Assembly: GCA_965116825.1 (NCBI GenBank)
Contig: OZ220736.1
Span: forward strand, 1,186,057 to 1,250,056
DNA from: Vicinamibacterales bacterium
GTDB lineage: Bacteria > Acidobacteriota > Vicinamibacteria > Vicinamibacterales > UBA8438
DNA: 64,000 bases
Direction of reading: 5' to 3'
Shown: one piece after another, positions 16,304-60,736 of the stretch
Numbering within the stretch: position 1 is the first letter of the stretch
Layout of the letters: each line of letters starts with the position of its first letter
Made by a program: the position numbers and the translations under genes
The notes under the pieces: generated by a model
The model's database searches: none
What the model was told of the DNA's origin: nothing
What the model saw: only the letters and a program-made list of their open reading frames with translations

Positions 16304-16330
16304 TTTCGCATTGCATGACATTGCATTACA

Positions 16331-33655: not shown

Positions 33656-34315
33656 TCAGGCTTGCGAGGCTTCCACCGGCCGCGGGCAGGAGACGCCGGT
33701 CCCGCCGAGGCCGCAATAGCCGCCGGGGTTCTTGGCCAGATATTGCTGGTGGTACTCCTCGGCGTGGTAGAAGAGCGGCAACATGCGGATTTCCGTCGTG
33801 ATCGGGCCGTAGCCGGCCGCGGTCAGGCCCGGCTGGTACGCGTCCCGCGACGCCTCGACCGCCCGTTGCTGCTCCGCTGCGTCCACGAGCACCACGGAGC
33901 GGTACTGGGTGCCGACGTCGTTGCCCTGCCGCATCCCCTGGGTCGGGTCATGGCTCTCCCAGAAGACCTGCAAGAGGCGTTCGAAGTCGATGACGCGCGG
34001 GTCGTACACGACGAGCACCACCTCGGAATGGCCCGTGCCGCCGCTGCACACCTCTTCGTACGTCGGGTTCTTCGTGTATCCGCCGGCATAGCCGACAGCG
34101 GTCGAGTAGACGCCGTCGAGCTCCCAGAACGTCCGCTCGGCGCCCCAGAAGCAACCCATACCGAACACCGCCTTGCGGGTCCCCTCCGGGAACGGCGGGC
34201 CGATCGGGCGCCCGTGCACGAAGTGCCCCGCGGGCACCGACAGCGGCGCGGCGCGGCCGGGCAGCGCCTCCGCCGCGGTGGGCATCCGCAGACTGGCCGG
34301 ATTGGCGAACAGCAT
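33656..34315 (-). CDS. msrA: peptide-methionine (S)-S-oxide reductase
   Basis: GCFWGAE active-site motif, 219 aa. A GAGGAGG RBS is preceded by an 8-bp hairpin (34330-34350). Confidence 0.9.
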
Positions 34316-34582
34316 CGTTCCTCCTCAACGCGGGCACAACCCGCGTTCCTACAGCATAGCGCCCGCCGGTTCGCGGAGCGACCATGCTCGGCCCGCGCGG
34401 CGACGCGAGTCTCGAACGGCAGCCTCACGCGAGGCTCCTGCCCACCCTTCGCTGCGACACGCCGACTACCGGCCGCAGCGTACGCGGGCCGGTTATCCTA
34501 CTTGCAATGGCGGGTGATGGTCCATTCTCGCTCGATGCCGAGCGCCGCGAGCGCGCACAGTCGGAACCGCGTGGGCCGCGTG

Positions 34583-35636: not shown

Positions 35637-35665
35637 TTCACGCGGATTCGCGCAACGGGTAGTAT
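35637..35665 (+). promoter_or_regulatory. sigma70-like promoter candidate for the SelW-like gene
   Basis: TTCACG-17 nt-TAGTAT, ending 23 nt upstream of the ATG at 35688. An AAGGAG RBS lies at 35674-35679. Confidence 0.35.
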
Positions 35666-35687
35666 ACGGAGACAAGGAGTCGAGCCG

Positions 35688-35918
35688 ATGAAGCTGTCGA
35701 TCACGTACTGCACCCGTTGAAAGTACCTGCCCAGGGCCTCCAGTCTGGCGGCCGAGATCAAGAGCGCGCTCGGTCTGGAAACCGAGCTGATCGAGGGCAC
35801 CAACGGGATATTCGACGTCGTCGCGGACGGCAGGATGATCTTCTCGAAGCACGCCGAGCAGCGGTTTCCGGAATCGGAGGAGATCATCGGCGCCCTGCGC
35901 GCGCTGAACGCCGCATGA
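35688..35918 (+). CDS. SelW/Rdx-family selenoprotein (CxxU), in-frame TGA at 35718-35720
   Basis: ATG with AAGGAG upstream. MKLSITYCTR-TGA-KYLPRASSLAAEIKSALGLETELIEGTNGIFDVVADGRMIFSKHAEQRFPESEEIIGALRALNAA matches the Rdx pattern (YCxxC/U...RA..La.el...G.FeV.vdG.lifSk...grFP). It is absent from the ORF track because of the TGA. Confidence 0.75.
35735..35753 (+). promoter_or_regulatory. candidate bacterial SECIS hairpin
   Basis: Starts 14 nt after the TGA. GGCC-U-CCA-GUC-UGG-C-GGCC: a 4-bp plus 3-bp stem with a 1x1 mismatch and GU in the loop. An alternative CCAG/CUGG pairing exists. Not folded computationally. Confidence 0.4.
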
Positions 35919-36013
35919 ACGCGTCGCCGGCGCCGGAACCATCGCCCCGGCCGCAGGCCTCGGGCTCACACCGGGCATCCGGTTCGGTCGTGCGTCTCAC
36001 GGAGGGAGGACCC

Positions 36014-37222
36014 ATGGCGAGAACAGTCACCCGTCGGGATATCCTGACCGGCGCGGCAGGCGCCATCGGCGCCGCCACGCTTGCGCCGGTCGGCCAGCGC
36101 GTGCACGCGCAGGACACCACGAAGGCGCCGGGGGGGCCGGCGAGCGCACTCGGCGCACGCTCACCGCACGAGCCGCTGGCGCGCGGCAGGGTCACCGGCC
36201 TCTCTTCGCGGACGCCGCTGCAGGATCTGCACGGCATGATCACGCCGTCGGACCTCCACTTCGAGCGGCACCACGGCGGCGTGCCGGAGATCGACCCCGA
36301 CGACTACCGGCTCCTGATCCACGGCCTGGTCGAGCGGCCGACGATTCTCACCCTCGCCGAGCTGAAGCGGTTCCCCGCCACGTCGCGGGTCTGCTTCCTG
36401 GAATGCTCGGGCAACTATCCCACCGGGGCCGGACCGGAGACGAGGCCAGAGTTGGTCTGCGGCATGACGTCCACCACCGAGTGGACCGGCGTGTCGCTCG
36501 CCACGCTGTTCCGCGAGGTCGGCGCGCGCCCCGGCGCAACGTGGTTCCTGGCCGAGGGACAGGACGCCGCGGTGATGACGCGCAGCGTCCCGATGGAGAA
36601 GGCCTGGGACGACGCCATGATCGCCTACGCCCAGAACGGCGAGGCGCTGCGGCCGTCGCAGGGCTACCCGGCGCGGCTCCTGTTGCCGGGCTGGGAGGGC
36701 AACTCCAACGTCAAGTGGCTGCGCCGCCTCGAGCTGGCCGACGCCCCGTTCATGACGCGCGAGGAGACCTCGAAGTACACCGACCCGCTCGCCGACGGCA
36801 CGGCCCGGCAGTTCAGCTTCGTCTTCGACGCCCGTTCGATCATCACCTCGCCGGCCTACCCCGACGTGGTCGAGCCGGGCTGGATCGAGCTCCGCGGCGT
36901 CGCCTGGTCCGGGCGGGGCACCATCGCGCAGGTGGACGTCAGCACCGACGGCGGCCGGACCTGGCAGGCGGCGCGCCTGCAGGAGCCCGTGCTGCGGCAG
37001 GCGCACACCCGCTTCCGGCACCTGTGGCGCTGGGACGGCTCCGAGACCGAGATCATGAGCCGGGCCACCGACGACAGCGGCTACGTCCAGCCGACCCGCG
37101 CCGCGCTGCGCGCCGTCCGCGGCCGCCGGGCGCGCCGGTATCACCTCAACCCCATCACCGCCTGGCGCATCCAGCCGAACGGGCAGGTCTACTACCGGGA
37201 GGAGCCGCCGTGGGACGCGTAA
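36014..37222 (+). CDS. second sulfite dehydrogenase-like molybdopterin oxidoreductase (SorA-like paralog), Tat-exported
   Basis: GGAGGGAGGA before the ATG at 36014. Tat signal TRRDILTGAAGAIGAATLAP and Moco-Cys motif FLECSGN. Collinear with the 5616-6929 product. Confidence 0.85.
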   Translation: MARTVTRRDILTGAAGAIGAATLAPVGQRVHAQDTTKAPGGPASALGARSPHEPLARGRVTGLSSRTPLQDLHGMITPSDLHFERHHGGVPEIDPDDYRLLIHGLVERPTILTLAELKRFPATSRVCFLECSGNYPTGAGPETRPELVCGMTSTTEWTGVSLATLFREVGARPGATWFLAEGQDAAVMTRSVPMEKAWDDAMIAYAQNGEALRPSQGYPARLLLPGWEGNSNVKWLRRLELADAPFMTREETSKYTDPLADGTARQFSFVFDARSIITSPAYPDVVEPGWIELRGVAWSGRGTIAQVDVSTDGGRTWQAARLQEPVLRQAHTRFRHLWRWDGSETEIMSRATDDSGYVQPTRAALRAVRGRRARRYHLNPITAWRIQPNGQVYYREEPPWDA

Positions 37223-41976: not shown

Positions 41977-42759
41977 TCATGAGTCCCGGGTCTCCGTTCG
42001 GGTCGACGGTCGGCTTCGTTTCCGCATCGAGTCTCCTTTCAGGTCGAGCTTGTACGCATTGTGCACGAGACGGTCGAGGATCGCGTCGGCGAGCGTCGGG
42101 TCGCCGACGATGTCATGCCACTTGTCGACGGGAACCTGGCTGGTCACGACCGTCGAGCGGACGCCGTGGCGGTCCTCGAGGACTTCGAGCAGGTCGTGGC
42201 GGTTCTCCGCGTTGAATGGGGCCAGCCCCCAGTCATCCATCACCAGCACCTCGGTCTTGGCGAGCGATTCGAGCAGCTTCGGGTAGCGCCCGTCGGCGCG
42301 CGCAATGGCCAGGGCGCTCAGCAGCCGGGACACGCGGACATACAACGCGCTGTGTCCGTTGCGGCAGGCGCTGTGGGCGAGCGCGCATCCTATCCAGCTT
42401 TTTCCGATGCCGGTCGGGCCGCAGATCAGGACGTTGAGATGCTCGCGGACCCAGCGCCCGTCGGCGAGCGAGAGGACGAGCTGCTTGTCGAGCCCGCGAC
42501 GGTGACGGAAGTCGATGTCCTCGATGCAGGCGTCGTGCTTCAGCTTGGCGCGCCGCAGTCGGTTGGTGAGCTGTCGGGAGTAACGCTCGGTAAGCTCGCG
42601 GTCGACGAGCAGACCGAGCCGTTCCTCGAACGAGAGGGCTTCGACCTCGGACGAGTCGAACTGCTCGGCGAGAGCCTTGGCCATCCCGGCGCATCGTAGC
42701 TGTTGGAGCTTCTCGACGGTCGGATGAGTCAGCATCTGGGCGTTCCTTTCAGCAATCAC
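41977..42759 (-). CDS. istB: IS21 helper ATPase IstB
   Basis: 260 aa. Walker A GPTGIGKSW and Walker B LLVMDDWG. Start overlaps the istA stop. Confidence 0.9.
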   Translation of the reverse strand: MIAERNAQMLTHPTVEKLQQLRCAGMAKALAEQFDSSEVEALSFEERLGLLVDRELTERYSRQLTNRLRRAKLKHDACIEDIDFRHRRGLDKQLVLSLADGRWVREHLNVLICGPTGIGKSWIGCALAHSACRNGHSALYVRVSRLLSALAIARADGRYPKLLESLAKTEVLVMDDWGLAPFNAENRHDLLEVLEDRHGVRSTVVTSQVPVDKWHDIVGDPTLADAILDRLVHNAYKLDLKGDSMRKRSRPSTRTETRDS

Positions 42760-44276
42760 TGGTAGTAGAGGGCGCCGCGGATGTTGTCGTGCTCGACCGG
42801 GTCGGCGCGGTCGAATTGCTCGGCGGACGTCTCGTCGAGTCGGTGCTTGAGGATCGATTCAACGCTGCGGTAGCTGTAGCTGCCGATGGCCAGCGCCCGT
42901 GTGGCGGCCGCTTCCAGGCGGGCGTCGCCGTGGCACTTGGCCAGACGCAGGAGACCGAGGCAGGAACGGTAGGCCTGCTGTGGGTGACGCCGCGAATTGA
43001 GGACGGCGGTGATCAGGGCGGCGGTCGACGGCCCGATCTTCTCGGCCAAGCGGATGAAGCAGTCCGGGGTCCATTCGCCCATCTGGCGGTGCTTCTCGGG
43101 CATGTGCTCGGTCGCGGTGGTGTGACGCCCCTTGTGCGAGGAACGGACGTGGCTGGCAACGCGCTGGCTGCGATGAAAGCACTCGACGGTGCGGGCGGTC
43201 AGTCGGACGTCGAGCTGGCGCCCGACCAGCGCGTGTGGAACCGAGTAGTAGTGGCGGTCGATTTCCACGTGGTAGTCGATGTGTACGCGCACGGTCTTCC
43301 ACTCGGCGAAGACGTACCGGCTGGAGGGCAGCGGGCGCAGGGCCGGCCGGTCGAGCTGCTCGAACTGCGAGCGCCGCGACCCCGGGAGCTTGCGGAACGG
43401 GCGCGTGTTGAGCCGGTCGAGCAGCTTGGAGACCGCGGCGTTGAGCTCGGCCAGCGAGAAGAACCTGCGATGGCGAAGCGCGGCGAGTATCCACCGCTCG
43501 ACGATTTGAACGGCGACCTCCGCCTTCGCCTTGTCCCTTGGGCGACGCACCCGCGCGGGCAGCACCGCCACGCCGTAGTGGGAGGCGAGGTCGTGATAGG
43601 TCGGATTCAGGTCAGGCTCGTAGCGATGGGCGCCGCTGACTCCCGAGCGCAGGTTGTCTGGGATCACGAGCTCGGGACAACCGCCGCAGAACTCGAAGGC
43701 TCGTACGTGCGAGGCCGTCCAGTCCGGCAGGGTCTGCGTCCAGGTGGCCTCGGCGAAGGTGTAGCTCGAGGCGCCGAGCACGGCCACGAAGACCTGCGCT
43801 TGACGCTCCTCGCCGGTCTCGGGGTCGACCACCGGCACCGTCTGCCCGGCGTAGTCGATGAACAGCTTCTCGCCGGCGCGGTGCTCCTGGCGCATCACCA
43901 GGTCGAGCTTTCCAGCCCATTCCCGGTACTGCTCGCAGAACCGGCTGTACTGCAACCCCTCGGGATGGATCGCCTTGTACTCTTCCCAGAGCAAGGCCAG
44001 CGTTACGTTCTTGCCCCGCAGCTCCCGGCGCACCTCGCTCCAGTCCGGCAGCGGACGCGACGTGTGGCTCGACGGGAGCGCCGGAAACAGCCGGCGCTCC
44101 AGCCCGGCGTCGTCGATCGCCTCGGGTAGCGGCCAACTCACCCCCGCCACCTTGGCGCGGCGCAGGTACTCGCCCACCGTCGACGGCGATGTCCCCAGGC
44201 TGCGGGCAATCGCCCGAATGCTCAACGCCGCGGCGAAGTACAGCCGCAGCACCTCTCGAATCTTCCGCATGGACAA
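42756..44276 (-). CDS. istA: IS21 transposase IstA
   Basis: 506 aa. N-terminal HTH (RKIREVLRLYF...SIRAIARSLG) and a DDE core (FIDYAGQTV...). Confidence 0.9.
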   Translation of the reverse strand: MSMRKIREVLRLYFAAALSIRAIARSLGTSPSTVGEYLRRAKVAGVSWPLPEAIDDAGLERRLFPALPSSHTSRPLPDWSEVRRELRGKNVTLALLWEEYKAIHPEGLQYSRFCEQYREWAGKLDLVMRQEHRAGEKLFIDYAGQTVPVVDPETGEERQAQVFVAVLGASSYTFAEATWTQTLPDWTASHVRAFEFCGGCPELVIPDNLRSGVSGAHRYEPDLNPTYHDLASHYGVAVLPARVRRPRDKAKAEVAVQIVERWILAALRHRRFFSLAELNAAVSKLLDRLNTRPFRKLPGSRRSQFEQLDRPALRPLPSSRYVFAEWKTVRVHIDYHVEIDRHYYSVPHALVGRQLDVRLTARTVECFHRSQRVASHVRSSHKGRHTTATEHMPEKHRQMGEWTPDCFIRLAEKIGPSTAALITAVLNSRRHPQQAYRSCLGLLRLAKCHGDARLEAAATRALAIGSYSYRSVESILKHRLDETSAEQFDRADPVEHDNIRGALYYQ

Positions 44277-44366
44277 CCTCCTGTTCGCCAGCTTCTATCC
44301 CTCCTGCAAAAGCAGGGAGGATCCCACGCCGGCGGGGTTGTCCCGCGTCGCTCAGCCCCGACTCAG

Positions 44367-44447
44367 GGTGATCGGTTTCGACCGGAATCGGTGATCGCTT
44401 TGGATCGGAATCAGTGATCGGTTTCGGCCGGAATCGGTGATCGGTTT
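44367..44447 (+). repeat. four subterminal direct repeats of the IS21 element (istA-proximal end)
   Basis: GGTGATCGGTTT-like units at 44367, 44390, 44413 and 44436, with 23-bp spacing. They are inverted relative to the 41867-41951 set. Confidence 0.85.
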
Positions 44448-44462
44448 GCCCCGGAATCCGCA

Positions 44463-45262
44463 TGCAGCCGGTCGACGTCGACTCGCTGCGCCTGGTCCGC
44501 CCCCGCAGCGTCGGCGTCGAGCAGGTCGGCCTGTGGGCCCTGGAGCAATTGGGCCTGCCGGCCCTGCTGGCCGAGTTGGGCGTCAACGGCGCGTTGCGCA
44601 CCGCGGCGGCCGGCGCCATCGTCGGGCGTCTGGCCCAGCCGGCCTCGGAGCGCGCGACGCACCGCTGGCTGCAAACCCGCAGCGGCCTCGGCGAGTTGCT
44701 CGGCGTCGACTTCGAGACCGTCAGCCCGATGCAGCTCTACCGCGCCTCGGATGCGCTGGTGAAGCATCGCGAGGCGATCGAGGCGCATCTGTTCGAGCGG
44801 GCCATGGGCCTGTTCGACCTGCAGCCGACCGTCACCCTCTACGACCTGACCAACACCTACTTCGAAGGCGAGGCGGGCGCGCAACCGCAGGCAAAGCGCG
44901 GACACTCGAAAGAGAAGCGCAGCGACTGTCCGCTGCTGACCCTGGGCCTGATGCTCGACGCCAGCGGCTTCGTGCGACGCTCGCAGGTCTTCGCCGGCAA
45001 CGTCCGGGAACACCGCACGCTGGCCGGCATGCTGGAGGCACTCGATGCACCGGCCGGCGCCCTGGTGGTCATGGACCGCGGCGTCGCCACCGAGGCCGCC
45101 ATCGGGTGGCTGCGCGACAACCGCTACCGCTATCTGGTCGTCAGCCGCGAACGCCACCGGCAGTTCGACGCCGAGACCGCCGTGTCGATCCAGACCCGAT
45201 CCAAACAGACCGTGCATCTGCACAAGGTCGTCTCGACCGACCCCGGCGAGGTCCGCCTGTAC
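44463..45262 (+). pseudogene. IS1634-family transposase fragment 2 (middle)
   Basis: ...LYDLTNTYFEGEAGAQPQAKRGHSKEKRSDCPLLTLGLMLD...VVMDRGVATE... is DDE transposase core sequence. Terminated by the IS3 insertion (the TGA is the first three bases of the IS3 IRL). Confidence 0.8.
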
Positions 45263-45322
45263 TGAAGTTGCCCCAGTTCCGCGGACACTTATCCTCTTGG
45301 CGAGGAGGAGGAGGAGTCCACG

Positions 45323-45631
45323 ATGCCGAAGTCGAGACCGCCGTACGCGGCGGCATTCCGACAGCAGATGGTCGAGCTGGTTCAGTCCGGACGTACACCG
45401 GGAGACCTCGCTCGGGAGTTCGAGCCGTCGGCCGAGGCGATACGAAACTGGGTCGCGCAGGCTGATCGCGACGCGGGCAAGCGCTCCGACGGCCTGCGCA
45501 CCGAAGAACATGAGGAGATTCGTCGGCTGCGCCGGGAGAACCGGCGGTTGCGCGAAGAACGCGAAATTTTGGCAAAAGCCACGGCCTGGTTCGCGCGGGA
45601 GACCGGATCCGGGAGGTCTACCGGTTCATGA
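45323..45631 (+). CDS. IS3 transposase OrfA (HTH)
   Basis: 102 aa with HTH and leucine zipper (EEIRRLRRENRRLREEREIL). A slippery A-AAA-G lies in GCAAAAGCC at about 45570. Confidence 0.85.
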   Translation: MPKSRPPYAAAFRQQMVELVQSGRTPGDLAREFEPSAEAIRNWVAQADRDAGKRSDGLRTEEHEEIRRLRRENRRLREEREILAKATAWFARETGSGRSTGS

Positions 45632-46581
45632 GCACGAACCAGGCTCGTTTTCGCGTCGCCACGATGGCCCGCGTGCTCGGTGTCTCCACGAGCGGGTACT
45701 ACGCGTGGCGTCAACGTCCACCGTCAGCTCGTGCGCAGGCCGATGCGGAGCTGACGGCCCGCGTGCAGGAGATTCATGCCGGCAGCCGGGGCACGTACGG
45801 CGCGCCGCGGATTCACGCCGAACTGGTCGAAGCCGGTGCCGCGGTCGGCCGCAAGCGGGTCGCGCGGGTGATGCGCGAGGCCGGCATCGCTGGGGTGAGC
45901 CGGCGCCGCGGCCCCCGCACGACGCGCCGAGAGGTGCAAGCGCGGCCGGCCCCGGACCGGGTCGAGCGGTGCTTCGAGGCCGACGCGCCGAACCGCCTGT
46001 GGGTGGCCGATATCACCTACATTCCGACCTTGGCAGGCTTCCTCTACTTGGCCATCGTTCTGGACGTTTTCAGTCGGCGGGTGGTCGGCTGGGCCATGGC
46101 TGCGCACCTGCGCACGGAGCTGGTGGTCGAGGCGCTGGAGATGGCCGTGGCGCAACGCCGGCCCGAGGCGGTCATCCATCATTCCGACCAGGGCTGCCAG
46201 TACACGTCGCTGGCCTTCGGAGCCCGCTGCCGTGAATCAGGCGTGGCGCTGTCGATGGGTTCGGTGGGAGATTGCTTCGACAACGCGATGGCGGAGAGCT
46301 TTTTCGCGACGCTCGAGTGCGAGCTGCTGGCCCGCACGAGCTTGTCCACGCACGCCGAGGCGCGGGCGGCGGTTTTTGATTTCGTCGAGGGCTGGTACAA
46401 CACGCGGCGCCGCCATTCGGCGTTGGGCTACGTGTCGCCGCTGGAGTTCGAACGTCTCCATGCGGCAGAAACTGTGGACGGGGCCCGGCCGGTGAAGGCT
46501 CTGCAGGCGCCCACGAGTCAGGTGGAGCTCGGATTGCCGGTGACGACTCACGCCGTCACCGGCCTTGCTGCGGGGGCTTGA
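45628..46581 (+). CDS. IS3 transposase OrfB (DDE integrase core), -1 frame relative to OrfA
   Basis: ADITYIPT, HSDQGCQYTS and DNAMAESFFATLE form the DDE triad context. The -1 frame stays open upstream to the slippery site (SHGLVRAGDRIREVYRF-MSTNQARFRV...). Confidence 0.85.
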   Translation: MSTNQARFRVATMARVLGVSTSGYYAWRQRPPSARAQADAELTARVQEIHAGSRGTYGAPRIHAELVEAGAAVGRKRVARVMREAGIAGVSRRRGPRTTRREVQARPAPDRVERCFEADAPNRLWVADITYIPTLAGFLYLAIVLDVFSRRVVGWAMAAHLRTELVVEALEMAVAQRRPEAVIHHSDQGCQYTSLAFGARCRESGVALSMGSVGDCFDNAMAESFFATLECELLARTSLSTHAEARAAVFDFVEGWYNTRRRHSALGYVSPLEFERLHAAETVDGARPVKALQAPTSQVELGLPVTTHAVTGLAAGA

Positions 46582-46973
46582 GGCCGGTTACGTAACGGTG
46601 CGTAGTTGACTTGGAAACCCACGGAGGAAATGGTGATCAACAGAGTACACGGCTCGCCTTCGGCTTCGCGAGACGAACCGCTGTTGCGGGTCGTGTGCCG
46701 CATCCACGGGGGCGCTGTGGAAGTGCCCGGTCTGGGGACGCCCGGTCAACGTCCTGCTGAATCTGAAGGTCGGCGAGGCGGGCGCCCCCAGCCCGTTGGA
46801 AATCTCGCGGGCGATCGTCGCCGATCACGCCCTGCACCGGGGCCGCGAGATTCCCACACTCCCACAGCGGTTGTCGTCGATGACTGACACGGAAACGACG
46901 TTCATCGGAGAATGTGTCATGATGTGAGCCCGCAAGCATTAACCCGTCCACGGGATCGGGGCAACCTCAGTAC

Positions 46974-47672
46974 TGCTACTCCGAAGAGCGAGCCCACAAG
47001 GAGCGGGCCATCGTCGAGCGGGCCGCCGACCGCTTCGAGGCCGCCCTGACCACGCTCAACGACGGGCTGGCGCGCCCCCGCGCCCACAAGCGCCTCGGAC
47101 AGGTCTGGCAGCGCATCGGGCGACTGAAAGCCAAGCATACCCGCGTCGCCGCGCACTACCAGATCGAGGTCACCCCCGACCAGACCGGTGAGAAGGCCGC
47201 CGCCGTCACCTGGACCCGCCGTCCCCAGGACGGCTCGATGGCCACCCATCCGGGCGTCTATTGCCTGCGCAGCAGCGAGACCGACTGGGACGAAGACGCC
47301 TTGTGGCGCACCTACACCACCCTCACCGATGTCGAGGCCGTCTTTCGCGCCCTGAAGTCCGAACTCGGACTGCGCCCCATCTACCACCACAAGCCGCGGC
47401 GGGCCGACGGCCACCTGTTCATCACCGTCATCGCCTACCAGCTCGTGCAGGTCATCCGCACCCGGCTGCAAGCTCACGGCGAACACGCCAGTTGGACCAC
47501 GCTGCGCCGCATCCTCGAAGGCCAGCAGCGCGTCACCGCCACCTTCCGGCGCCCCGACCGACGCACCCTGCACGTGCGCACCGCCACGCAAGCCGAACCC
47601 GGACAGCGGGCCATCTACGACGCGCTCGGCGTCGACCCGCAGCCGGGAGGCGTTCGCAAGACGACCATCTGA
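46974..47672 (+). pseudogene. IS1634-family transposase fragment 3 (C-terminus)
   Basis: CYSEERAHKERAIVERAADRFE...YTTLTDVEAVFRALKSELGLRPIYHHKPRRADGHLFITVIAYQLV... Its frame is consistent with fragment 2 after removal of the IS3 and one TSD. Confidence 0.8.
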
Positions 47673-47976
47673 CCGACCCATTTCCGGTTTGCGCGCGTTT
47701 GTAGTGCCACTCGAGCATTCTTGCCGGCGTAAACTGCTGATTCTGCAATGGCTTAGTAATACCGCTGTTAAACTTGGGCTAACGAGGCTCGAAGCGACGG
47801 CCAGCCTTGATCCTGTGAGCGCGGACGTGACGCGGGCCACCACGAAGTCGTTGTGGCAGCCATCACGAGCAATGTCGAGCGACTGCTCGTCGGCGATCAC
47901 CGGATCGCGATGTAGCGTGTGGTGGGTTGACCGAAATGTGAAAGTGTCGATGGGACTCTGAGGCTCGTCGCGCGCA

Positions 47977-48492
47977 TCACCCAGTTCCTGTAGCTCCAGA
48001 CAGGGGAGCGTTCTCTCGAACCACCGGGAAGCGTGGAGCGCCCCAACCGTGGTCCGGGTGCTTGATCATCAGGTCGATGAAGTGCGGCACCAGAGACGCC
48101 ATGATTCTCGCACCGGTCTCGACTTGCGCCCGGTTCACCGTACTCGCCCAAGTCGCACCGCCGTGAAGTAGTTGGTTGCGCAGCGTGTACAGGCGACCGA
48201 ACAGCTTGGGAAGGACATCCTTGGTCTGTCGCTCGTTGATCGCCTGCTTCGCCGTTTCCCGATCCTTGTCGAACCTGTTCTCCCAGTCCAGTTCTTCCGC
48301 CGGGTTGTGGCGATGTTTCCAGTACCGCCAGTACACGTACCTGTTCTCCAGGATCCTTTTGACCTTGGCCCTTCCCCGCCACAGAGTGGCATCGACTACG
48401 CTGTTCGAATCGACAAGAATGCCTATTCTGTCGAGATAGTCACCCCACATTTCCCACTCTTTCTTCTCCAGAGAAGTCCCCCGCTGCCCGTA
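47977..48492 (-). pseudogene. C-terminal part of an Rx4H (HEPN-like) protein gene split by the ISAzo13 insertion
   Basis: Contains LYTLRNQLLHGGATW (R-x4-H). The frame continues upstream of the listed Met to the insertion point (YGQRGTSLEKKEWEMWGDYL...). Clearly lower GC than the background. Confidence 0.55.
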
Positions 48493-48525
48493 AGGGCCGG
48501 CGCAAGAATAACTTCCGTTTTTTCG

Positions 48526-49440
48526 TTACATGGGTTCGATGGTGTAGTTCCATTTGGGCATTGAGCTGTCGGGTGTAATGCGCAACTCCCGCATCTGGGC
48601 GTCGGTGACCTTGATGCCGGTCTTGTAGGTCTTTCGGACCAGGTGCGCGCGCACGCGCAGCCCGGTGGCGGTGCGTGTGGTGCGCAGGTACTTCAGGATG
48701 GTCTCGTAGCTGTCCAGCGGGCGGCCCGCCCAGTTCTTGGTGACCTCGCAGAACAGGCGGTGTTCGATTGGATTCCACTTCGAAGTGGCCGGCGGGTAGT
48801 GGGCCACGGTCACGCGCAAGCCGTGCCGGTTGCAGAGGCGGTGCTGCAGGTTGAATTTCCAGGCGCGCGCCGTGCAACTGTTGCTGCCGCCGCCGTCGGC
48901 CAGGATCTGCAACGCGTTGGCCTCGGGATAGTGCTTGCAGCCCTCGGTGCGCCACCATTTCTCGATGCAGTCGACGGCGAACGCCGGGGTGTCGGCGGTC
49001 TGGCCGACGAAGATGGTGCCGGCGTTGGCCCGCGGGTCGTAGATGCCGTAGGGGACGGCGAGTCCCTCAGCGTCTGAGCGGAAGTCGTGGTCCTTGACCC
49101 GTTCGGGACTGCGGTCCCACTTGGCGCCGGGATTGCGGAACGTGCCGACGAGTTCCTTCTTCTTGGTGTCGACGCTGATGACCGGGACGTTGTCGGCGGC
49201 GCAACGCTCGCGCAGTTCGGTGATGTTCCGAAACTGGTCGTCGCGCCTCGGATGCGAGGCCCCGGCGAGCTTCTTGTGGTTGACGCGCAACGAATAGCCC
49301 ATCGCCTTGAGCAGTCGCGCGACCGTCTGCGGGCAGACGTCGATGCCGAGCGCGCACAGTTCATCGGCGACCTTGGCGGTCGTACGGCGTGTCCACTTCA
49401 GGCCCCTGACCGGGTCGCCGGCCGTCTCGTGTTCCATCAA
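48526..49440 (-). CDS. ISAzo13-family transposase, C-terminal (DDE) part
   Basis: LMEHETAGDPVRGLKWTRRTT...ISVDTKKKELVG...ILADGGGSNS...HYPPATSKWNPIEHRLF is the characteristic ISAzo13/Rhodopirellula-type DDE transposase. It is joined to the N-part by a -1 shift at an A8 run. Confidence 0.85.
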   Translation of the reverse strand: MMEHETAGDPVRGLKWTRRTTAKVADELCALGIDVCPQTVARLLKAMGYSLRVNHKKLAGASHPRRDDQFRNITELRERCAADNVPVISVDTKKKELVGTFRNPGAKWDRSPERVKDHDFRSDAEGLAVPYGIYDPRANAGTIFVGQTADTPAFAVDCIEKWWRTEGCKHYPEANALQILADGGGSNSCTARAWKFNLQHRLCNRHGLRVTVAHYPPATSKWNPIEHRLFCEVTKNWAGRPLDSYETILKYLRTTRTATGLRVRAHLVRKTYKTGIKVTDAQMRELRITPDSSMPKWNYTIEPM

Positions 49441-50150
49441 GGCTTGGATGCAGACGATGACTTCCGGTGTTTTTTTTCCGTTGGTGTGCGTCCGCCGCCC
49501 GCGCGCCGCACCCGGTCGACCTCGACGTCACGCGCGACCAGTTGCCGCCGGCCCGAAGCGACCGTCGACGGGTCGATGCCGAGCAGTCGGGCGATGCGCC
49601 GGTCACCGCCCCACCCGCACTTGAGCGCTTCGAGGCCGGCGAACAGACGCCGCTGCCGCTCGTCGAGCAGGCTGGCGAACAACACGATGGCGGCACGCAA
49701 CTCCTCGGGCATCAGGTCGGCGTCGGGTAGGGGTTGTCCAAGTCCGGGCGTGGCCAGCAGCAGGCGTCTGCTGCGCACTTGGTGCGTCTGCTGCGTGCGG
49801 TCGGCCGCGCAGTAGAGGAACTGGCCGGCGAGCTTGTGGCGTGTCAGCCGCTCGTCAGCGACGAGTTTACGCAGCGCGTCCTGGGTGCCGACACCGAGCA
49901 GGTTGTCCAACTCGTCGACGAAGTGTCCGGCTTCGGCGTGGTTGACGAACGACTCGGCGGTTGCGAGCAGGGTGCCGGCGCGGGAGAAGCGGACTCCGGC
50001 GAAGGACCACAGGCCGCGCTCGTCGAAGTCGGCGAGTTGGTCGAGGGTGTAGTAGCCGCCACGATGCGAGTAGCTGGTGCGGGCGTCGATGTCCTTGAGC
50101 TTGCGGAACGCGGTGCGCCTGCTGGCGCCGGCACCGAGCGCGGCCATCAC
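49437..50150 (-). CDS. ISAzo13-family transposase, N-terminal part
   Basis: Ends ...RRAGGGRTPTEKK then runs out of frame. The -1 frame continues TPEVIVCIQALMEHETAGDP. Confidence 0.8.
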   Translation of the reverse strand: MMAALGAGASRRTAFRKLKDIDARTSYSHRGGYYTLDQLADFDERGLWSFAGVRFSRAGTLLATAESFVNHAEAGHFVDELDNLLGVGTQDALRKLVADERLTRHKLAGQFLYCAADRTQQTHQVRSRRLLLATPGLGQPLPDADLMPEELRAAIVLFASLLDERQRRLFAGLEALKCGWGGDRRIARLLGIDPSTVASGRRQLVARDVEVDRVRRAGGGRTPTEKKHRKSSSASKP

Positions 50151-55122: not shown

Positions 55123-55650
55123 TCACCTCGTGGCATATCGATCCTCTGTCACTCTGTAGGCGTCGGCGGTGGTGGCCACGTTGATCTTCTCGCTCACCTT
55201 CACATGGACGTCCATGGGGATGGTCGCCCGCCCGAGTCTCCTGGAGAGTTCCTTGTTCCGTTCCCGGATATCGGAGTCGGTGACCGCTGCAGAGTCGACG
55301 TCCAGCCAGAGCTGCCGCCACTCGGTCTCCAGATCCTGGCATTCCCTCCTGGCGGAGTTGAGCACAGCGATCTTGGTGCCGTAATCCGACATGAAGTCCC
55401 ATGTGACCAGAACGGCGATGCCCAGGTTGGGAATCATCTGCCACTGCTCGGGCAGCATGTTCAGGATCGTCGCGACACTACCCGTTGCGGAAAGCAGCAG
55501 ACCAAAGCGTACAGCGCTGTGACGGTTACGGAAGCGCGACTCCATCTTCTCCGCATACCGGGTCATACGAGCAGCGTCCAGCATCTCGCTCCACACGGCG
55601 TGTCGGGTTCCTTCCGTGACGGCCTGCCGCGCGATGCGCTCGTCGTCCAT
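55123..55650 (-). CDS. hypothetical 2-TM protein in a lower-GC patch (SLATT/DUF4231-like topology, tentative)
   Basis: Strong AGGAGGGGG RBS. 175 aa: an N-terminal helix, two adjacent TM helices (VRFGLLLSATGSVATILNML and IPNLGIAVLVTWDFM), then a charged helical tail. No firm family match from memory. Confidence 0.45.
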   Translation of the reverse strand: MDDERIARQAVTEGTRHAVWSEMLDAARMTRYAEKMESRFRNRHSAVRFGLLLSATGSVATILNMLPEQWQMIPNLGIAVLVTWDFMSDYGTKIAVLNSARRECQDLETEWRQLWLDVDSAAVTDSDIRERNKELSRRLGRATIPMDVHVKVSEKINVATTADAYRVTEDRYATR

Positions 55651-55699
55651 CGGCCCCCTCCTGTTCCAACTCTATACCGACCTCATGTGCAGCGGTCGC

Positions 55700-57178
55700 T
55701 CAGTCGACATCCAGCAGATCGCGCACGGCCAGCGCGTACGGCGCCGCGTCGACCCCGTGCGCGCGGGCGGCCGCCGTCTGCGCGGCTAGCGTGGCGACGG
55801 CGCGATCCCGAAACGCGGGGTCGGCCGTGATGGTCGCCAATCTCAGGAGGATGCGCGCCGCCTCGCAGTTGACGGCGAACGGTCGCAGGGGCTCCCGCAA
55901 CAGGCCGATGTCCTCCGGGCCGTGAACGCGGTCGCGGAAGCCGCCGCCTCCGCTCGCGCCCCACAGGTGCTGGATTGCGAAGTGCATCAGCTCCTGGGCC
56001 ATGTCGAGATAGACCTCGCGGCCGGTCAGCTCGTGGAGATCGAGCAGCGCCGCGGCGGCCCGGACCTGGTCGGAGAGCAGGCCCCGGACGCCGGTGCGGG
56101 AGCCGGCCCGGTGGGCGATCCCGCCGCCGCGCTCGTAGGTCCCCGCCACGACGTGCTCCATCGCGTCGACGGCGAACTCCAGCAGCGACGAGTCCCGCAG
56201 GGTCTCCGACGCGGCGGCGAACGCGCGGGCCATCAGGGCGGTGCCGTCGGCGTAGACGGCGCGGTCGACAGGGGGCGGCCCGGCGGCGGGTGCATCTGCC
56301 TCCGTCCGCGGCCGGTAGTAGTCCGGGTCGCCCCGCTGGCTGGCGAAGAACCCGGGATGGTCCGGCGCCAGGTCGGCCAGCGTGCGCCGCACGTAGCCGA
56401 CCACGCCGATGGCCCGGTCGAGGCAGCCGTCGTCGTCGGGCAGCAGGAAGAGGCGGAGCGCCTCGGCATTGACGGCGAGCAGCTTCTCCGTCGCCGGCTC
56501 GGTCCAGTCGCGGCGCGCGCAGTAGCGGAACACGCCGCCGTCGAGCTCGTCGTAGAGCCCGCCCCAGGCCATGGCCCGGAGCGTGCGTTCGACCACCGCG
56601 CCGAACGCCTCGTCACCGTCGCCGGCCCGGCGCCACGCCAGCTCGAGGGCGGCGGCGTGGACCCGCTTCGCCCCGGCGCCGAAGCCGCCGTGCTCCTCGT
56701 CGAACTGCGCGAGCAGACACTCGCCCACCCAGGCGTCGACGCCGGAATCCGGCGCGGCGGCCGCCGGAACGGCAGGTTGTGCGGCAGGCGCGGCGCCGCG
56801 CGCGACGATCGCGTCCCGCTGCTGCTCGAACGCGTCGGCCACGCGCGGCAGCAGGTCCCGCATCCGCTCCGTCGTCGCGTAGGTCTCCCCGCCCAGAACC
56901 TGACCGTCCGGAGTCAGGAACGCGGTCGTCGGCCATCCACCGAGGCCGTAGCGGTCTGCGATGTCGGGCCGCTCTTCCGCATCGACGCGGACCGGCACGA
57001 ACCGATCGTCCAGCAGATCGGCGACGCGGGGATCGGCGTACGCCCCGCCCATCATGGACGCGCTGGCGGGGCACCAGCGCGGTCCGAGGGCCAGCAGCAC
57101 CGGGACCTGCCCAACCCGCGCCTCCTCGAAGGCGGCGCGCCCCCACGAACGCCACTCGACGAGGAAGGTTGTCGCCAC
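55700..57178 (-). CDS. thioredoxin-domain (DUF255/YyaL-like) protein with (alpha/alpha)6 C-terminal domain
   Basis: N-terminal WRSWGRAAFEEARVGQVPVLLALGPRWC...RFVPVRVDAEERPDIADRY...GWPTTAFLTPDG. The usual CxxC is degenerate (WCPASAS). Confidence 0.75.
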   Translation of the reverse strand: MATTFLVEWRSWGRAAFEEARVGQVPVLLALGPRWCPASASMMGGAYADPRVADLLDDRFVPVRVDAEERPDIADRYGLGGWPTTAFLTPDGQVLGGETYATTERMRDLLPRVADAFEQQRDAIVARGAAPAAQPAVPAAAAPDSGVDAWVGECLLAQFDEEHGGFGAGAKRVHAAALELAWRRAGDGDEAFGAVVERTLRAMAWGGLYDELDGGVFRYCARRDWTEPATEKLLAVNAEALRLFLLPDDDGCLDRAIGVVGYVRRTLADLAPDHPGFFASQRGDPDYYRPRTEADAPAAGPPPVDRAVYADGTALMARAFAAASETLRDSSLLEFAVDAMEHVVAGTYERGGGIAHRAGSRTGVRGLLSDQVRAAAALLDLHELTGREVYLDMAQELMHFAIQHLWGASGGGGFRDRVHGPEDIGLLREPLRPFAVNCEAARILLRLATITADPAFRDRAVATLAAQTAAARAHGVDAAPYALAVRDLLDVD

Positions 57179-57274
57179 GGGCGCCTGCTCACCGGCCGGT
57201 CAGGCGTACATCGAGGCAGACGCGCCGGCCATGACGCGCCACCTCGCCGCGCCCGATCACCCGCGGGTGAGACG

Positions 57275-57739
57275 CTACTCCTCGGTGATGTCCGCCTGGA
57301 TGTCGAGATCGATGCAGCCGGCCACGCTGTTGGCGGCGGGACACCCGGTCGGGTGCCGCTCGACAGCGCGCTCGGCCGCCTCGCGCTTCCCTTTCGGGAT
57401 CGTGAGGTCGTAGCGGACGCGGATGCGCGTGATGCGCAGCACCTTGTCGATCGCTTCGATGTCGCCTTCGACGGCGGCGGTGATCTTGTCGGGCGGCGCC
57501 GGAATGTCGCGCACCTCCAGTGCGCGTGCAAGGGTGCCGAGCAGTCAACCGCCGACGGCGCCGACCATGTAGTCGAGCGTCGCGGGCACGTCCTCGTCCG
57601 GCTCCACCCCGTAGAACTTCTTGATGCCCCCGTGCACGCCGAACCGGATCGGCGTGTCGAACCCCTCGAGGAACATCTCGCGGATGGGCCCCTTGACCCG
57701 ATCGATCCGCATGCGGCTGGTATGTACGACGTCTGGCAC
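57275..57739 (-). CDS. OsmC-like selenoprotein, in-frame TGA at 57547-57545
   Basis: Track ORFs 57545..57946 and 57275..57514 share one frame separated only by the TGA. The read-through gives ...ATLDYMVGAVGG-U-LLGTLARALEVRDI...ERHPTGCPAANSV, so U falls at the first conserved OsmC Cys and the second Cys is retained. GTG start at 57739 after GGAAGGAG (an ATG at 57712 is the alternative). Confidence 0.7.
57508..57526 (-). promoter_or_regulatory. candidate bacterial SECIS hairpin
   Basis: On the mRNA strand, 18 nt after the UGA: CGCGCAC-UGGAG-GUGCGCG, a 7-bp perfect stem with a 5-nt G-containing loop. Not folded computationally. Confidence 0.45.
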
Positions 57740-57815
57740 GAGCGGCTCCTTCCGCCTCCGGCCGCGATCGCGCGGCGCCGGGCACTTCGCTTCCCCGATG
57801 CTACAATCGGGGACC

Positions 57816-58370
57816 ATGCAAGAGTCAAGAATCGGTTTTGTTTTCGTCGTCTTCGCGGCTGCGCTGCTGCTCGCGGGGAGCGCGGTTCCGGCCGGCGCCC
57901 AGGCGCCGAGCTTCCAGGCGGAAGAGGGACCCGAAGGGGTCCGCAACTACACGCGCGTCGACGCCACCGTCGCCTGCGCCGGCGCCACGCCGGTCGAGGC
58001 GCTGGCCGTGCTGCAGGAACGGGGCTTCCGCACCATCGTCAACTTCCGCACCCCGGGCGAGCAGGGGGCCAACATCGACGACAGCCGTGCGGCGGCCGAG
58101 GCGGCGGGCCTCAACTACGTCCACCTGCCGTTCCGCACGCCGACGGCCGAGATCGCCGAGGCGTTCCTCGACACGGTGGGCGAGCCGGCCAATCAGCCCG
58201 TCTACATCCACTGCGGCTCCGCCAACCGGGTGGGCGCGATGTGGCTGATCAAGCGCGTCAAGCAGGACGGCTACTCGGTGGAGGATGCCACCGCCGAGGC
58301 AGAAGCGATCGGCCTGCGCAGCGTCCCGCTGAGGAACTTCGCGCTCGAGTACGTCGGCGCAGGCAACTGA
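57816..58370 (+). CDS. secreted DUF442/PTP-loop (dual-specificity phosphatase-like, sulfur-transferase-associated) protein
   Basis: ATG at 57816, signal peptide. VYIHCGSANRVGAMW is an HC-x4-R loop, as in TIGR01244/DUF442 proteins. Confidence 0.6.
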   Translation: MQESRIGFVFVVFAAALLLAGSAVPAGAQAPSFQAEEGPEGVRNYTRVDATVACAGATPVEALAVLQERGFRTIVNFRTPGEQGANIDDSRAAAEAAGLNYVHLPFRTPTAEIAEAFLDTVGEPANQPVYIHCGSANRVGAMWLIKRVKQDGYSVEDATAEAEAIGLRSVPLRNFALEYVGAGN

Positions 58371-58471
58371 CGGACTCGGGCCGACAGCGACACGGTGGCC
58401 GACGACACGTGGCCGACGACACGGCGGGCAGCGGCACCGTGGCCGGCAAGGAAACGAAACGCCTCGGCGAC

Positions 58472-59962
58472 ATGGACGCCGAGGCGTTTCGCCGGCACGG
58501 CCACGCCCTCGTCGACTGGATAGCCGACTACCTGAACCGCACCGAGCGCTACCCGGTCCTCTCGAAGAATTCGCCGGGCGCGGTGCGCGACGCGCTGCCG
58601 CCGTCCCCGCCCGACAAGGGCGTCCCCTTCGATGCGATCTTCCGCGACTTCGAGCGGGTGATCGTGCCCGGCATCACACACTGGAACCACCCCGGCTTCT
58701 TCGCCTACTTCGCCATCTCGGGCGCCGCCGCCGGGGTGCTCGCCGAGTTCCTCTCCGCCGCTCTGAACGTGCAGGCCATGCTGTGGCGGACGTCGCCCGC
58801 CGCGACCGAGCTCGAAGAGGTGACCCTCGGCTGGCTGCGGCAGCTTCTCGGCCTGCCCGACGCGTTCGAGGGGGTCATCTACGACACGGCGTCCATATCG
58901 AGCCTCCACGCGCTGGCCGCGGCCCGGCACCGCGCGGTGGCCGACGTCCGCACGCGGGGGCTGGCCGGGCGCCCGGAGGTCGGTCCGTTGCGCGTCTACG
59001 CCTCCGAGCAGGCGCACTCGTCGATAGACAAGGCGATCATGACGCTCGGCCTGGGCCACGACGCGCTGTCTCACGTCCCCGCGGACGACGAGTTCCGGAT
59101 GCGGCCCGAGGCGCTGCGCGAGGCCATCGCCGCCGATCGCGCACGCGGCGTGACCCCGCTGGCGGTGGTCGCCACCGTCGGCACCACCTCGACGACCAGC
59201 GTCGACCCGGTCGGCCCCATCGCCGACATCTGCGCGGACGAGGGCGTCTGGCTGCACGTCGACGCGGCCTACGCCGGCGTCGCGGCCCTGGTGCCGGAGA
59301 CGCGGGGCGTGCTGGCCGGCTGCGACCGGGCCGACTCGTTCGTCGTCAATCCGCACAAGTGGCTCTTCACCCCGTTCGATCTCAGCGCGTTCTACTGCCG
59401 CCACATGGACACGCTGCGGGATGCGTTCTCTCTGACGCCCGACTACCTGCAGACGCTGGAAGCCGTGGAGGTCCGCAACCTGATGGACACCGGCGTGCAG
59501 CTCGGCCGCCGGTTCCGCTCGCTGAAGCTCTGGGCCATCCTGCGCCACTTCGGGTCCGAGGGCATCCGCGACCGGCTCGCCGAGCACATGCGGCTCGCCC
59601 GGCTGTTCGCGGCGTGGGTGGACGAGAGCCGCGACTTCGAGCGGCTGGCGCCGGTCCCGTTCAGCGTCGTCTGCTTCCGGGCCTTGCCCGCCGGCGCGGC
59701 AGCCGCACCGGGTAGAGCCGGGACCGACGCCGGCGCCTCAACCGCAGGCGGCGCTGCCGACGCCGCCGTCGATGCCGCAGCGGACACGCTGAACGAACGG
59801 CTGATCGAGGCGGTCAACGCCACCGGCGAGGTGTTCCTCTCGCACACGCGCCTCGACGGGCGTTTCACCATCCGCCTGGCGGTCGGGCACGTACGCACCG
59901 AGGAGCGGCACGTGCGGCGGGCGTGGGAGCTGCTCGACGAGAAGCTGCGGGCGCTCCGCTGA
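58472..59962 (+). CDS. PLP-dependent group II decarboxylase (aromatic-L-amino-acid/tyrosine decarboxylase-like)
   Basis: ATG at 58472. ITHWNHPGFFAYF, the PLP-lysine motif NPHKWLF, and SLKLW. It is hidden in the 55922..59962 artefactual ORF. Confidence 0.9.
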   Translation: MDAEAFRRHGHALVDWIADYLNRTERYPVLSKNSPGAVRDALPPSPPDKGVPFDAIFRDFERVIVPGITHWNHPGFFAYFAISGAAAGVLAEFLSAALNVQAMLWRTSPAATELEEVTLGWLRQLLGLPDAFEGVIYDTASISSLHALAAARHRAVADVRTRGLAGRPEVGPLRVYASEQAHSSIDKAIMTLGLGHDALSHVPADDEFRMRPEALREAIAADRARGVTPLAVVATVGTTSTTSVDPVGPIADICADEGVWLHVDAAYAGVAALVPETRGVLAGCDRADSFVVNPHKWLFTPFDLSAFYCRHMDTLRDAFSLTPDYLQTLEAVEVRNLMDTGVQLGRRFRSLKLWAILRHFGSEGIRDRLAEHMRLARLFAAWVDESRDFERLAPVPFSVVCFRALPAGAAAAPGRAGTDAGASTAGGAADAAVDAAADTLNERLIEAVNATGEVFLSHTRLDGRFTIRLAVGHVRTEERHVRRAWELLDEKLRALR

Positions 59963-60075: not shown

Positions 60076-60324
60076 GTGCTGACGATGAGCATCCGCTGGA
60101 GTCTGGTCGTCCCTGATGAAACCGACCGCAGTCTTCGCAGCTACCTGGCCAGAACCGGGGGCAGGAAGGGAGACCTGTCCCGGTTCGTCGACCGCGCCGT
60201 CCGGCAGGCAATCTTCTGGGAGACCCTCGAATCGATCTGGGAGCGCAACCAGCACCTCTCAGCCGAAGAGGTCCAGGCCCTCGCCGATGACGCGGTCGCG
60301 CAAGCCCGTGCGGATCGTCCTTGA
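60076..60324 (+). CDS. ribbon-helix-helix antitoxin
   Basis: MSIRWSLVVPDETDRSLRSYLARTGGRKGDLSRFVDRAVRQAIF is RHH-like. The likely real start is the ATG at 60085. Overlaps the PIN gene start. Confidence 0.6.
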   Translation: MLTMSIRWSLVVPDETDRSLRSYLARTGGRKGDLSRFVDRAVRQAIFWETLESIWERNQHLSAEEVQALADDAVAQARADRP

Positions 60325-60736
60325 CACCAACCTCCTCGTGAGCGCGTTGATTTCGCGGAACGGACTACCCGGCCGGGTGCTGGAAGCGGTCAAACACCAG
60401 GGACTGACGCTGGTCACCTCCACGGTACAGCTCGACGAGCTGCGGGCCATGCTGAGCCGTGAGCGTCTCGCTCTGTACATCCGCCGTGAAGAGGCGGAGG
60501 ATCTGATGCGCAACCTGGAGGCGGTGGGCGAAGTCGTCACCACCGACCTGCCCGACGTGGAGGTGTCACCCGACCCGGACGACAACCGGATCCTCGGCAC
60601 GGCGATCGCCGGACGCGCAGACCTGATCATCTCCGGCGACAAGAAGCACATGTTGGCCCTTGGCCAAGTGGAGGGCATTCCGATCGTCAGCGTGGCCGAT
60701 GCAGTAGACCGGTTGCCTGTCGGCGGCCGCAGTTAG
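60308..60736 (+). CDS. PIN-family toxin (PIN_3/TIGR00305-type)
   Basis: GTG at 60308. RIVLDTNLLVSALISRNG...SPDPDDNRILGTAIAGRADLIISGDKKHM. Confidence 0.8.
   Translation: MRIVLDTNLLVSALISRNGLPGRVLEAVKHQGLTLVTSTVQLDELRAMLSRERLALYIRREEAEDLMRNLEAVGEVVTTDLPDVEVSPDPDDNRILGTAIAGRADLIISGDKKHMLALGQVEGIPIVSVADAVDRLPVGGRS

Follow-up and report, generated by a model that had tools for sequence, protein, structure and literature searches.

An in-frame UGA predicted to encode selenocysteine in an OsmC-like gene of a Vicinamibacterales bacterium

On the minus strand of a 64,000-nucleotide stretch of contig OZ220736.1 from a Vicinamibacterales bacterium (assembly GCA_965116825.1; this whole stretch is called the window below), two open reading frames (ORFs), 57545..57946 and 57275..57514, share one frame and are separated by a lone TGA at 57547-57545. 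Does this TGA end a gene, or is it read as selenocysteine (Sec) within an OsmC-like protein, as an earlier, sequence-only reading of the window had proposed? Every coordinate and sequence which that reading gave for the two ORFs and the TGA between them is correct, and comparative genomics, from which we infer Sec insertion, makes it very probable that 57739..57275 (minus strand) is one functional gene whose UGA at codon 65 encodes Sec. The product is rather likely to be a Sec-dependent hydroperoxide reductase, with a chemistry, a substrate and a reductant that we infer. The features of the gene are as follows.

57739..57275, minus strand: coding sequence of the predicted OsmC-like selenoprotein, 154 codons, GTG start, TAG stop at 57277-57275, Sec at codon 65
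57545..57547, minus strand: predicted Sec codon UGA, codon 65, at the position of the peroxidatic Cys; the next base is C
57341..57343, minus strand: codon TGT of Cys133, the predicted resolving Cys, in a C-P-A motif; invariant in the family and aligned to the second Cys of 1UKK
57746..57753, minus strand: Shine-Dalgarno-like GGAAGGAG, read from the sequence and with a presumed role, 6-nucleotide spacer to the GTG

One reading frame across a TGA

The translation of 57739..57275 (VPDVVHTSR...MVGAVGG, stop, LLGTLARALEVRDIP...HPTGCPAANSV...ITEE, stop) has the TGA as its sole internal stop. Read through from GTG 57739, the product is VPDVVHTSRMRIDRVKGPIREMFLEGFDTPIRFGVHGGIKKFYGVEPDEDVPATLDYMVGAVGG-stop-LLGTLARALEVRDIPAPPDKITAAVEGDIEAIDKVLRITRIRVRYDLTIPKGKREAAERAVERHPTGCPAANSVAGCIDLDIQADITEE, and the peptide around the predicted Sec65 is AAGG-U-LTGTLSGALEAR. 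The gene starts at GTG 57739 and not at TTG 57946, because GGAAGGAG lies 6 nucleotides upstream of this GTG, because homologs start with M-[PAS]-[DE]-V-V-H-T-S-R, matching the residue encoded there, and because a divergent gene starts at 57816; orthologs of the gene have equal length and equal ends. Many other ORFs in the window end at TGA, so that the standard code applies and codes 4 and 25 are excluded. Two further TGA-joined pairs of ORFs were considered as recoded genes and rejected: 9795-10973/10974-13253 are separate beta-lactamase and DUF5916 genes, and 32862-33947/30438-32861 are separate HAD hydrolase and GH65 genes.

When a Cys is placed at the TGA, the read-through product matches the Pfam family OsmC (PF02566) over residues 52-147 (E 9e-11, 42.5 bits at a cut-off of 27.5 bits); the match spans the TGA and thus extends over both sides of it, so that the joined frame goes beyond chance. 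In an alignment of a profile of 26 family members with the OsmC structure of Thermus thermophilus (1UKK), the TGA column coincides with the first conserved Cys (A-G-C-F), Cys133 (G-C-P-A) with the second Cys (G-C-P-V), and the invariant D56 with the acidic residue that precedes the first Cys by about 10 positions. Both columns that had been named from the sequence, the TGA at the first conserved Cys and a second Cys in a CP context, are borne out by this alignment, and Sec65 and Cys133 are invariant columns within the family. They match Cys59/Cys125 of Escherichia coli OsmC and Cys60/Cys124 of Ohr, the peroxidatic/resolving pairs of these enzymes. Three conserved residues (R9, R20 and R77) are candidates for the catalytic Arg of Ohr/OsmC.

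The fold was assigned via the full-length Cys homolog P0002 (67% identical), which stands in for the window protein. Its AlphaFold2 model has a mean predicted local distance difference test score of 96.8, and the best matches to it in the Protein Data Bank (top 50, Foldseek) all have the OsmC/Ohr fold, with template modelling (TM) scores of 0.6-0.86, in the order 2ONF, 6MJN, 1LQL, 2EGT, 1ML8, then Ohr and OsmC. The long central helix of the model (54-76) has residue 65 midway along it, and Cys133 is at the start of a short helix, like in OsmC/Ohr. By this model, the product of the window gene is predicted to be an OsmC/Ohr-fold protein of 154 residues.

The codon at the Sec column was compared among orthologs, with one genome per species, at 80 loci of which 79 could be scored. 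The closest loci are on chromosomes of Vicinamibacterales metagenome-assembled genomes (MAGs), with protein identities of 94-97%. Of the 79 scorable loci, 77, from at least eight phylum-level groups, have TGA as this codon, and one locus of Terriglobia (L067) has TGC. One locus (L068) is frameshifted and was not scored; another (L080) has the TGA but is frameshifted just downstream and was left out of the TGA count. By record title, the TGA loci belong to Vicinamibacterales and Bryobacterales, to Dehalococcoidia/Chloroflexota, Desulfobacteraceae, Gemmatimonadota, Actinomycetes, Dormiibacterota and one Cytophagia MAG, and to cultured Bacillota: Marinithermofilum, Melghirimyces, Alteribacillus, Guptibacillus hwajinpoensis, Thalassobacillus devorans, Cytobacillus oceanisediminis, Salibacterium, Mesobacillus, Litchfieldia and Virgibacillus. 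All TGA loci conserve the flanking protein sequence, before the TGA as well as after it, and the base directly 3' of the UGA is C in 75 of these 77. In 22 close orthologs, 350 of 430 changes upstream of the TGA and 448 of 640 changes downstream of it are at third codon positions; with such an excess in both halves, both are under purifying selection.

In protein databases, about 97 full-length clusters have Cys at the column, compared with 92 Sec forms, and TGC or TGT at this position was confirmed in the DNA of L067, L081 and L083-L085. The sequence-only reading had left it to the orthologs whether the codon would be TGA or TGC/TGT: it is TGA or one of the two Cys codons, and a true stop with unrelated sequence after it is not what the orthologs show. 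The nearest relative of seven Cys forms is a Sec form, which points to repeated exchange between Sec and Cys, as is typical of selenoprotein families.

Three observations on single loci stand apart from these comparisons. Marinithermofilum abyssi has two near-identical copies of the TGA gene on two contigs (L048 and L049), each with the hairpin described below. The L080 copy of Cytobacillus oceanisediminis CGMCC 1.10115 differs from L059 by an 11-nucleotide deletion between short GCGCG repeats (L080:6193-6240), by which the hairpin loop and 3' arm are lost and the frame is shifted; either this copy has decayed or the assembly is wrong here. The copy at L065 (JAGGQZ010000020.1, labelled Chryseobacterium sp. 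ISL-80) is of the LVGTLSGALEARK type, groups with Bacillaceae and resembles the copies of Mesobacillus and Bacillus sp. EB01, and the label or the purity of this assembly may be wrong.

Could the TGA nevertheless be a true stop, and the locus a pseudogene or two independent small ORFs? Public records of the clade hold halves only: about 100 half-length database fragments of 85-100 amino acids end with ...AVGG or AVGA or start just past the TGA (for example MDP7338709.1 and MBM63285.1, of 85-89 amino acids), and are named 'OsmC family protein', 'hypothetical protein' or 'organic hydroperoxide reductase OsmC/OhrA'. The frameshifts of L068 and L080 would also fit a true stop. However, the same codon is TGA across phyla while both its flanks are under purifying selection, the single OsmC domain and its fold require both halves, and homologs have Cys in place of the stop. 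In addition, the second half has neither a start codon of its own nor a ribosome-binding site, and the first in-frame start after the TGA is inside the hairpin. A true stop is therefore hardly credible, and the reading of the TGA as a sense codon within one gene is preferred.

That annotation pipelines split the gene had been expected from the sequence, and the two fragments in the public records agree with this. The full-length members carry the label 'uncharacterized OsmC-like protein' from JGI. In 21 clusters the Sec column is W and in one it is G; in P0001 the W is TGA in the DNA, so that these W and G residues are due to gene callers having changed to code 4 or 25. Such Trp/Gly calls are on short metagenomic contigs (P0001, P0003, P0004, P0121-P0126 and others); a whole contig is then called with code 4 or 25 over one Sec codon, a possible source of false alternative-code calls.

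The hairpin downstream of the UGA and the proposed decoding of codon 65

A hairpin resembling a Sec insertion sequence (SECIS) follows the UGA, with exactly the sequence and at exactly the place proposed in the sequence-only reading.

57526-57508, minus strand: SECIS-like hairpin CGCGCAC-UGGAG-GUGCGCG, 7 base pairs, beginning 18 nucleotides after the UGA and coding for A-L-E-V-R
57526-57520, minus strand: 5' arm of the hairpin
57519-57515, minus strand: loop, UGGAG
57514-57508, minus strand: 3' arm of the hairpin

The 60 nucleotides from the TGA onwards form a gap-free alignment of 71 sequences, all but one of the 71 being distinct (70). The helix is formed by columns 22-28 with 34-40, and 93.9% of the cells among the distinct sequences are standard pairs. 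Changes on both sides of a pair are found in four of the seven pairs: 22:40 (CG in 34, GC in 15), 27:35 (AU in 37, GC in 27), 23:39 and 26:36. Not one of 500 shuffles matched the observed pairing or covariation, and the pairing falls to 5-65% when the partner strand is slid by 1-3 columns. RNAalifold pairs columns 23-29 with 33-39; its helix is shifted by one pair towards the loop, shares six pairs with the seven-pair helix, lacks 22:40 and is closed by U29·G/A33. The apical loop C-U-G-G-A/G is almost invariant, with G30 and G31 each conserved to at least 90%.

The bacterial SECIS is described as a stem-loop that closely follows the UGA and whose small apical loop contains a G (PMC1088965), and the candidate hairpin fits this published description. 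Like the SECIS of E. coli fdhF, it is a hairpin within the coding sequence, a short way past the UGA and with a G in the apical loop, and SelB binding is presumed by analogy; it differs in its shorter stem (7-8 base pairs), in its distance of 18 nucleotides from the UGA and in its sequence.

As the stem overlaps the conserved codons R/G-A-L-E-V/A-R, the effect of coding constraint on the pairing was controlled by resampling synonymous codons, with the codon usage of the respective gene. The mean pairing is 6.62 of 7 pairs, compared with 4.50 expected from the resampling. In 14 loci with low GC content, the GC content at third codon positions is 0.67 in the hairpin codons and 0.41 in the remaining gene. 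Pair 27:35 joins the wobble base of the Ala codon with the second base of the Val/Ala codon, and pair 22:40 joins the first bases of the R/G and the D,E/Q,H codons; RNA pairing thus appears to have shaped the protein, too. Five homologs with TGC or TGT retain 2-5 of the seven pairs and have lost the CUGGA loop. Two TGA loci, L069 and L046, fit the register of the hairpin poorly; L046 forms a different, larger hairpin. On the whole, the proposal that the hairpin serves as a recoding signal is strengthened: it is conserved with covariation in Sec forms and lost in Cys forms. Together with the domain match across the TGA, the aligned Cys column and the codons of the orthologs, this favours the interpretation given in the sequence-only reading.

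Several points weigh against the reading of the locus as the gene of a Sec-dependent hydroperoxide reductase. When the RNA downstream of the UGA is folded, as the sequence-only reading had suggested, the hairpin belongs to the minimum-free-energy structure, but the energy is ordinary (z = -0.77 for 71 nucleotides); because the energy of the single sequence is no outlier, the significance of the hairpin is taken from comparative data only. Neither SECIS nor any other credible Rfam family was found, with a scan of the whole window at gathering thresholds and a permissive one of 57450-57600. A few deep events between related sequences may account for much of the covariation, and the overlap of the stem with conserved codons counts here too. 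The window and 85 related loci revealed no selA, selB, selD or tRNA-Sec gene. Finally, Sec insertion and peroxidase activity are, in this clade, predicted only, and the closest solved structures (2ONF, 1LQL and 1ML8) are mostly uncharacterised.

The search for the Sec machinery comprised ARAGORN, which found no tRNA in the window or in 38 of the loci; Pfam, which identified no SelA, SelB or SelD among about 50 ORFs of the window; and tblastn with the E. coli proteins SelA, SelB and SelD as queries, which returned, from the window and the 85 loci, one weak match to a GTPase domain only. A gene for a PLP-dependent decarboxylase at 58451-59959 (plus strand) was considered as a Sec-synthesis gene because of a weak SepSecS match (28 bits) and rejected: its main Pfam match is Pyridoxal_deC, and the SepSecS match is read as fold-level similarity among PLP enzymes. 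Sec users are on record among Acidobacteria and Bacillales (PMC1794560), which is no evidence for the genome of the window itself, and a literature search on Vicinamibacter and selenium returned nothing relevant. The window also has an MsrA gene (33659-34324, minus strand); this family has Sec forms elsewhere, and the uninterrupted domain indicates a Cys form.

The lack of Sec genes in the window and the related loci would suit a true stop, and equally a UGA recoded to something other than Sec: to Cys, via a tRNA(Cys) that resembles tRNA-Sec or via an opal-suppressor allo-tRNA, or to Trp or Cys by near-cognate read-through when selenium is scarce. Suppressor-type tRNAs have been described: selC*-type tRNA(Cys) and acidobacterial allo-tRNAs are potential nonsense suppressors and are known from Deltaproteobacteria and Acidobacteria (PMC5389517). 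Cys is, moreover, functionally acceptable at the Sec column. However, the hairpin with its loop G is kept in Bacillaceae and Chloroflexota, where no such tRNAs have been reported; a lineage in need of Cys could use TGC, as several lineages did; and ARAGORN found no tRNA gene in the window or near any of the 38 loci on which it was run. Both variants of non-Sec recoding are thus very improbable, and Sec remains the preferred identity of residue 65. For its insertion, SelB with Sec-tRNA(Sec) would bind the hairpin within the coding sequence and deliver the Sec-tRNA to the ribosome paused at UGA65.

The predicted product and its genomic surroundings

In the mechanism that we propose, Sec65 would be the peroxidatic residue: its selenolate, Sec-Se(-), would attack the hydroperoxide ROOH and be converted to a selenenic acid, Cys133 would resolve the selenenic acid to an intramolecular selenenylsulfide, and a thiol reductant, such as a thioredoxin-like or a lipoyl protein, would reduce the selenenylsulfide again.

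A genuine selenoprotein with another thiol/selenol redox role is an unlikely alternative, though a much better one than a true stop or non-Sec recoding: the protein could handle disulfides or persulfides or carry selenium or sulfur, possibly together with a DUF255 protein. By structure, the nearest proteins are of the OsmC-like/YhfA type and uncharacterised (2ONF, 1LQL, 2EGT, 1ML8), and the scores of the window protein with the curated peroxiredoxin models are far below the cut-offs: 16.0 bits for OsmC (TIGR03562, cut-off 85.8), 12.9 bits for Ohr (TIGR03561, cut-off 88.85) and 17.1 bits for the SACOL1771 peroxiredoxin (TIGR03563, cut-off 166.15). A DUF255 gene is, in Vicinamibacterales, directly downstream. 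On the other hand, the clade conserves the two catalytic Cys columns of OsmC/Ohr as well as the acidic residue upstream, and the linkage to DUF255 is seen in one order only, with no conserved neighbour elsewhere. A hydroperoxide reductase is therefore still the preferred function. The two neighbours of the gene are:

55700..57178, minus strand: DUF255/Thioredox_DsbH thioredoxin-like gene, 96 nucleotides past the stop of the predicted selenoprotein gene, possibly co-transcribed with it
57816..58370, plus strand: gene of a secreted DSP/PTP-like phosphatase-fold protein, divergent; it bounds the upstream region of the predicted selenoprotein gene

A scan for promoters and terminators (55500-58000) found nothing, including no terminator-like site between the predicted selenoprotein gene and the DUF255 gene. 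Synteny with the DUF255, PTP-like, PLP-decarboxylase, transketolase and GGT genes is found in Vicinamibacterales only, and no neighbour is conserved at the ortholog loci of other phyla; a functional link via neighbours was rejected because the synteny is limited to this order, and a partnership with the DUF255 protein is speculation. The DUF255 gene (55700-57178, minus strand) reads W-C-P-A-S, with one Cys only; at this site, the DUF255/Thioredox_DsbH family presumably has, as a rule, a CxxC-type motif.

Further away, the window contains a cluster of insertion sequences at 41980-49527, apparently a local hotspot of mobile elements: an IstB-like ATPase (41980-42759, minus strand) and an IS21-type transposase (42759-44294, minus), a DDE_Tnp_1 transposase (44441-45262, plus), an IS3-like rve integrase (45514-46578, plus) and an ISAzo13-type DDE transposase (48529-49527, minus). 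There are two sulfite-oxidase-like molybdopterin oxidoreductases (5571-6926 and 35663-37219, both plus strand); a c-type cytochrome gene (6883-7530, plus) comes after the first of them. An AAA_21/AbiEii-like ATPase beside a PIN-domain protein (14176-17154, plus) and a separate PIN_3 protein (60116-60733, plus) are possible toxin-antitoxin or defence genes.

Relation to known families and biological meaning

The sequence-only reading had counted OsmC-like proteins among the reported bacterial selenoprotein families, and rightly so (PMC1088965, PMC2398784, PMC13188914). An 'OsmC-like protein' selenoprotein family (PF02566/COG1765, motif UxxT) was predicted in 2005 by Zhang, Fomenko and Gladyshev from three Sargasso Sea sequences (PMC1088965), was found again with five sequences in the GOS metagenomes (PMC2398784) and is listed with the same family and motif in reviews of 2022 and 2026 (PMC9312934, PMC13188914). 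In the literature we found, this family is present in computational tables only, with no experiment reported. As it has been predicted since 2005, the window gene is not new in kind, and the current understanding of selenoproteins is unchanged by it. The 2026 review cites PF02566 only and no NCBIfam model for the family, which fits a family missed by specific models, like the clade of the window gene.

The clade and the family of 2005 are alike in the PF02566 fold, in Sec in place of the first redox Cys, in the presence of Cys homologs, in a SECIS hairpin with a G in a small apical loop and in being known from computation only; the clade also has members from marine MAGs (MBM63285.1 and MBQ00209.1). 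They differ, in a comparison at the level of motifs, in that the clade has U-L-[LT]-G-T, with Thr at +4, and the published motif is U-x-x-T. The published family is also rare (three and five sequences), whereas the clade has the TGA in 77 species-level genomes and includes, unlike the set of 2005, soil Acidobacteriota and cultured Bacillaceae.

Among the NCBIfam models, the best one for the window protein is NF041052, 'OsmC-related (seleno)protein', likewise an OsmC-type family with Sec and Cys members. The window protein aligns to it over residues 49-147 but scores 20.8 bits at a cut-off of 95 bits, and this cut-off is reached by none of 26 diverse clade members (best E 1.8e-6). The clade is thus a different subfamily, which NF041052 would neither name nor recode.

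With the OsmC/Ohr reductases (1QWI/1NYE, 1UKK, and Ohr of Xylella and Pseudomonas, 4XX2/1N2F) the clade shares the fold (TM 0.6-0.75) and the conserved peroxidatic and resolving columns, the former being occupied by the predicted Sec instead of Cys. It differs from them in an identity of 10-20%, in scores below the cut-offs of TIGR03561 and TIGR03562 and in a clade-specific conserved N-terminal segment, HTSR...FGVHGGIK.FYG. The best structural matches (TM up to 0.86) are 2ONF (Ta0195), 1LQL (Mycoplasma pneumoniae), 2EGT, 1ML8 (E. coli YhfA) and 2OPL (Geobacter), and the sequence profile also finds the last of these, with a match that takes in part of the N-terminal segment. These five are largely uncharacterised Cys or non-Cys proteins, and no selenoprotein is among them.

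The clade may be a second OsmC-fold selenoprotein family, separate from NF041052, perhaps also from the 'UxxT' family, and much more widespread, although we consider this somewhat doubtful. If true, this second family would be widespread in aerobic soil Acidobacteriota and in cultured Bacillaceae, where the use of Sec is thought to be rare. It would have one family-wide SECIS within the G/R-A-L-E-A/V-R codons in at least eight phylum-level groups, and the capacity for Sec decoding in these lineages would have been under-counted because of systematic mis-annotation.

For Vicinamibacterales and many other genomes, the predicted gene would mean that a conserved redox enzyme is absent from the annotation, where it figures as two halves, as a pseudogene or, under code 4 or 25, with Trp or Gly at the Sec column. 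As a clean marker, the family may indicate Sec decoding in soil Acidobacteriota, which are abundant, and in cultivable Bacillaceae, and the cultivable carriers among the latter would suit experiments on an OsmC-type selenoenzyme. The predicted SECIS, lying over conserved codons, would be a compact case of joint constraint on RNA and protein across phyla.

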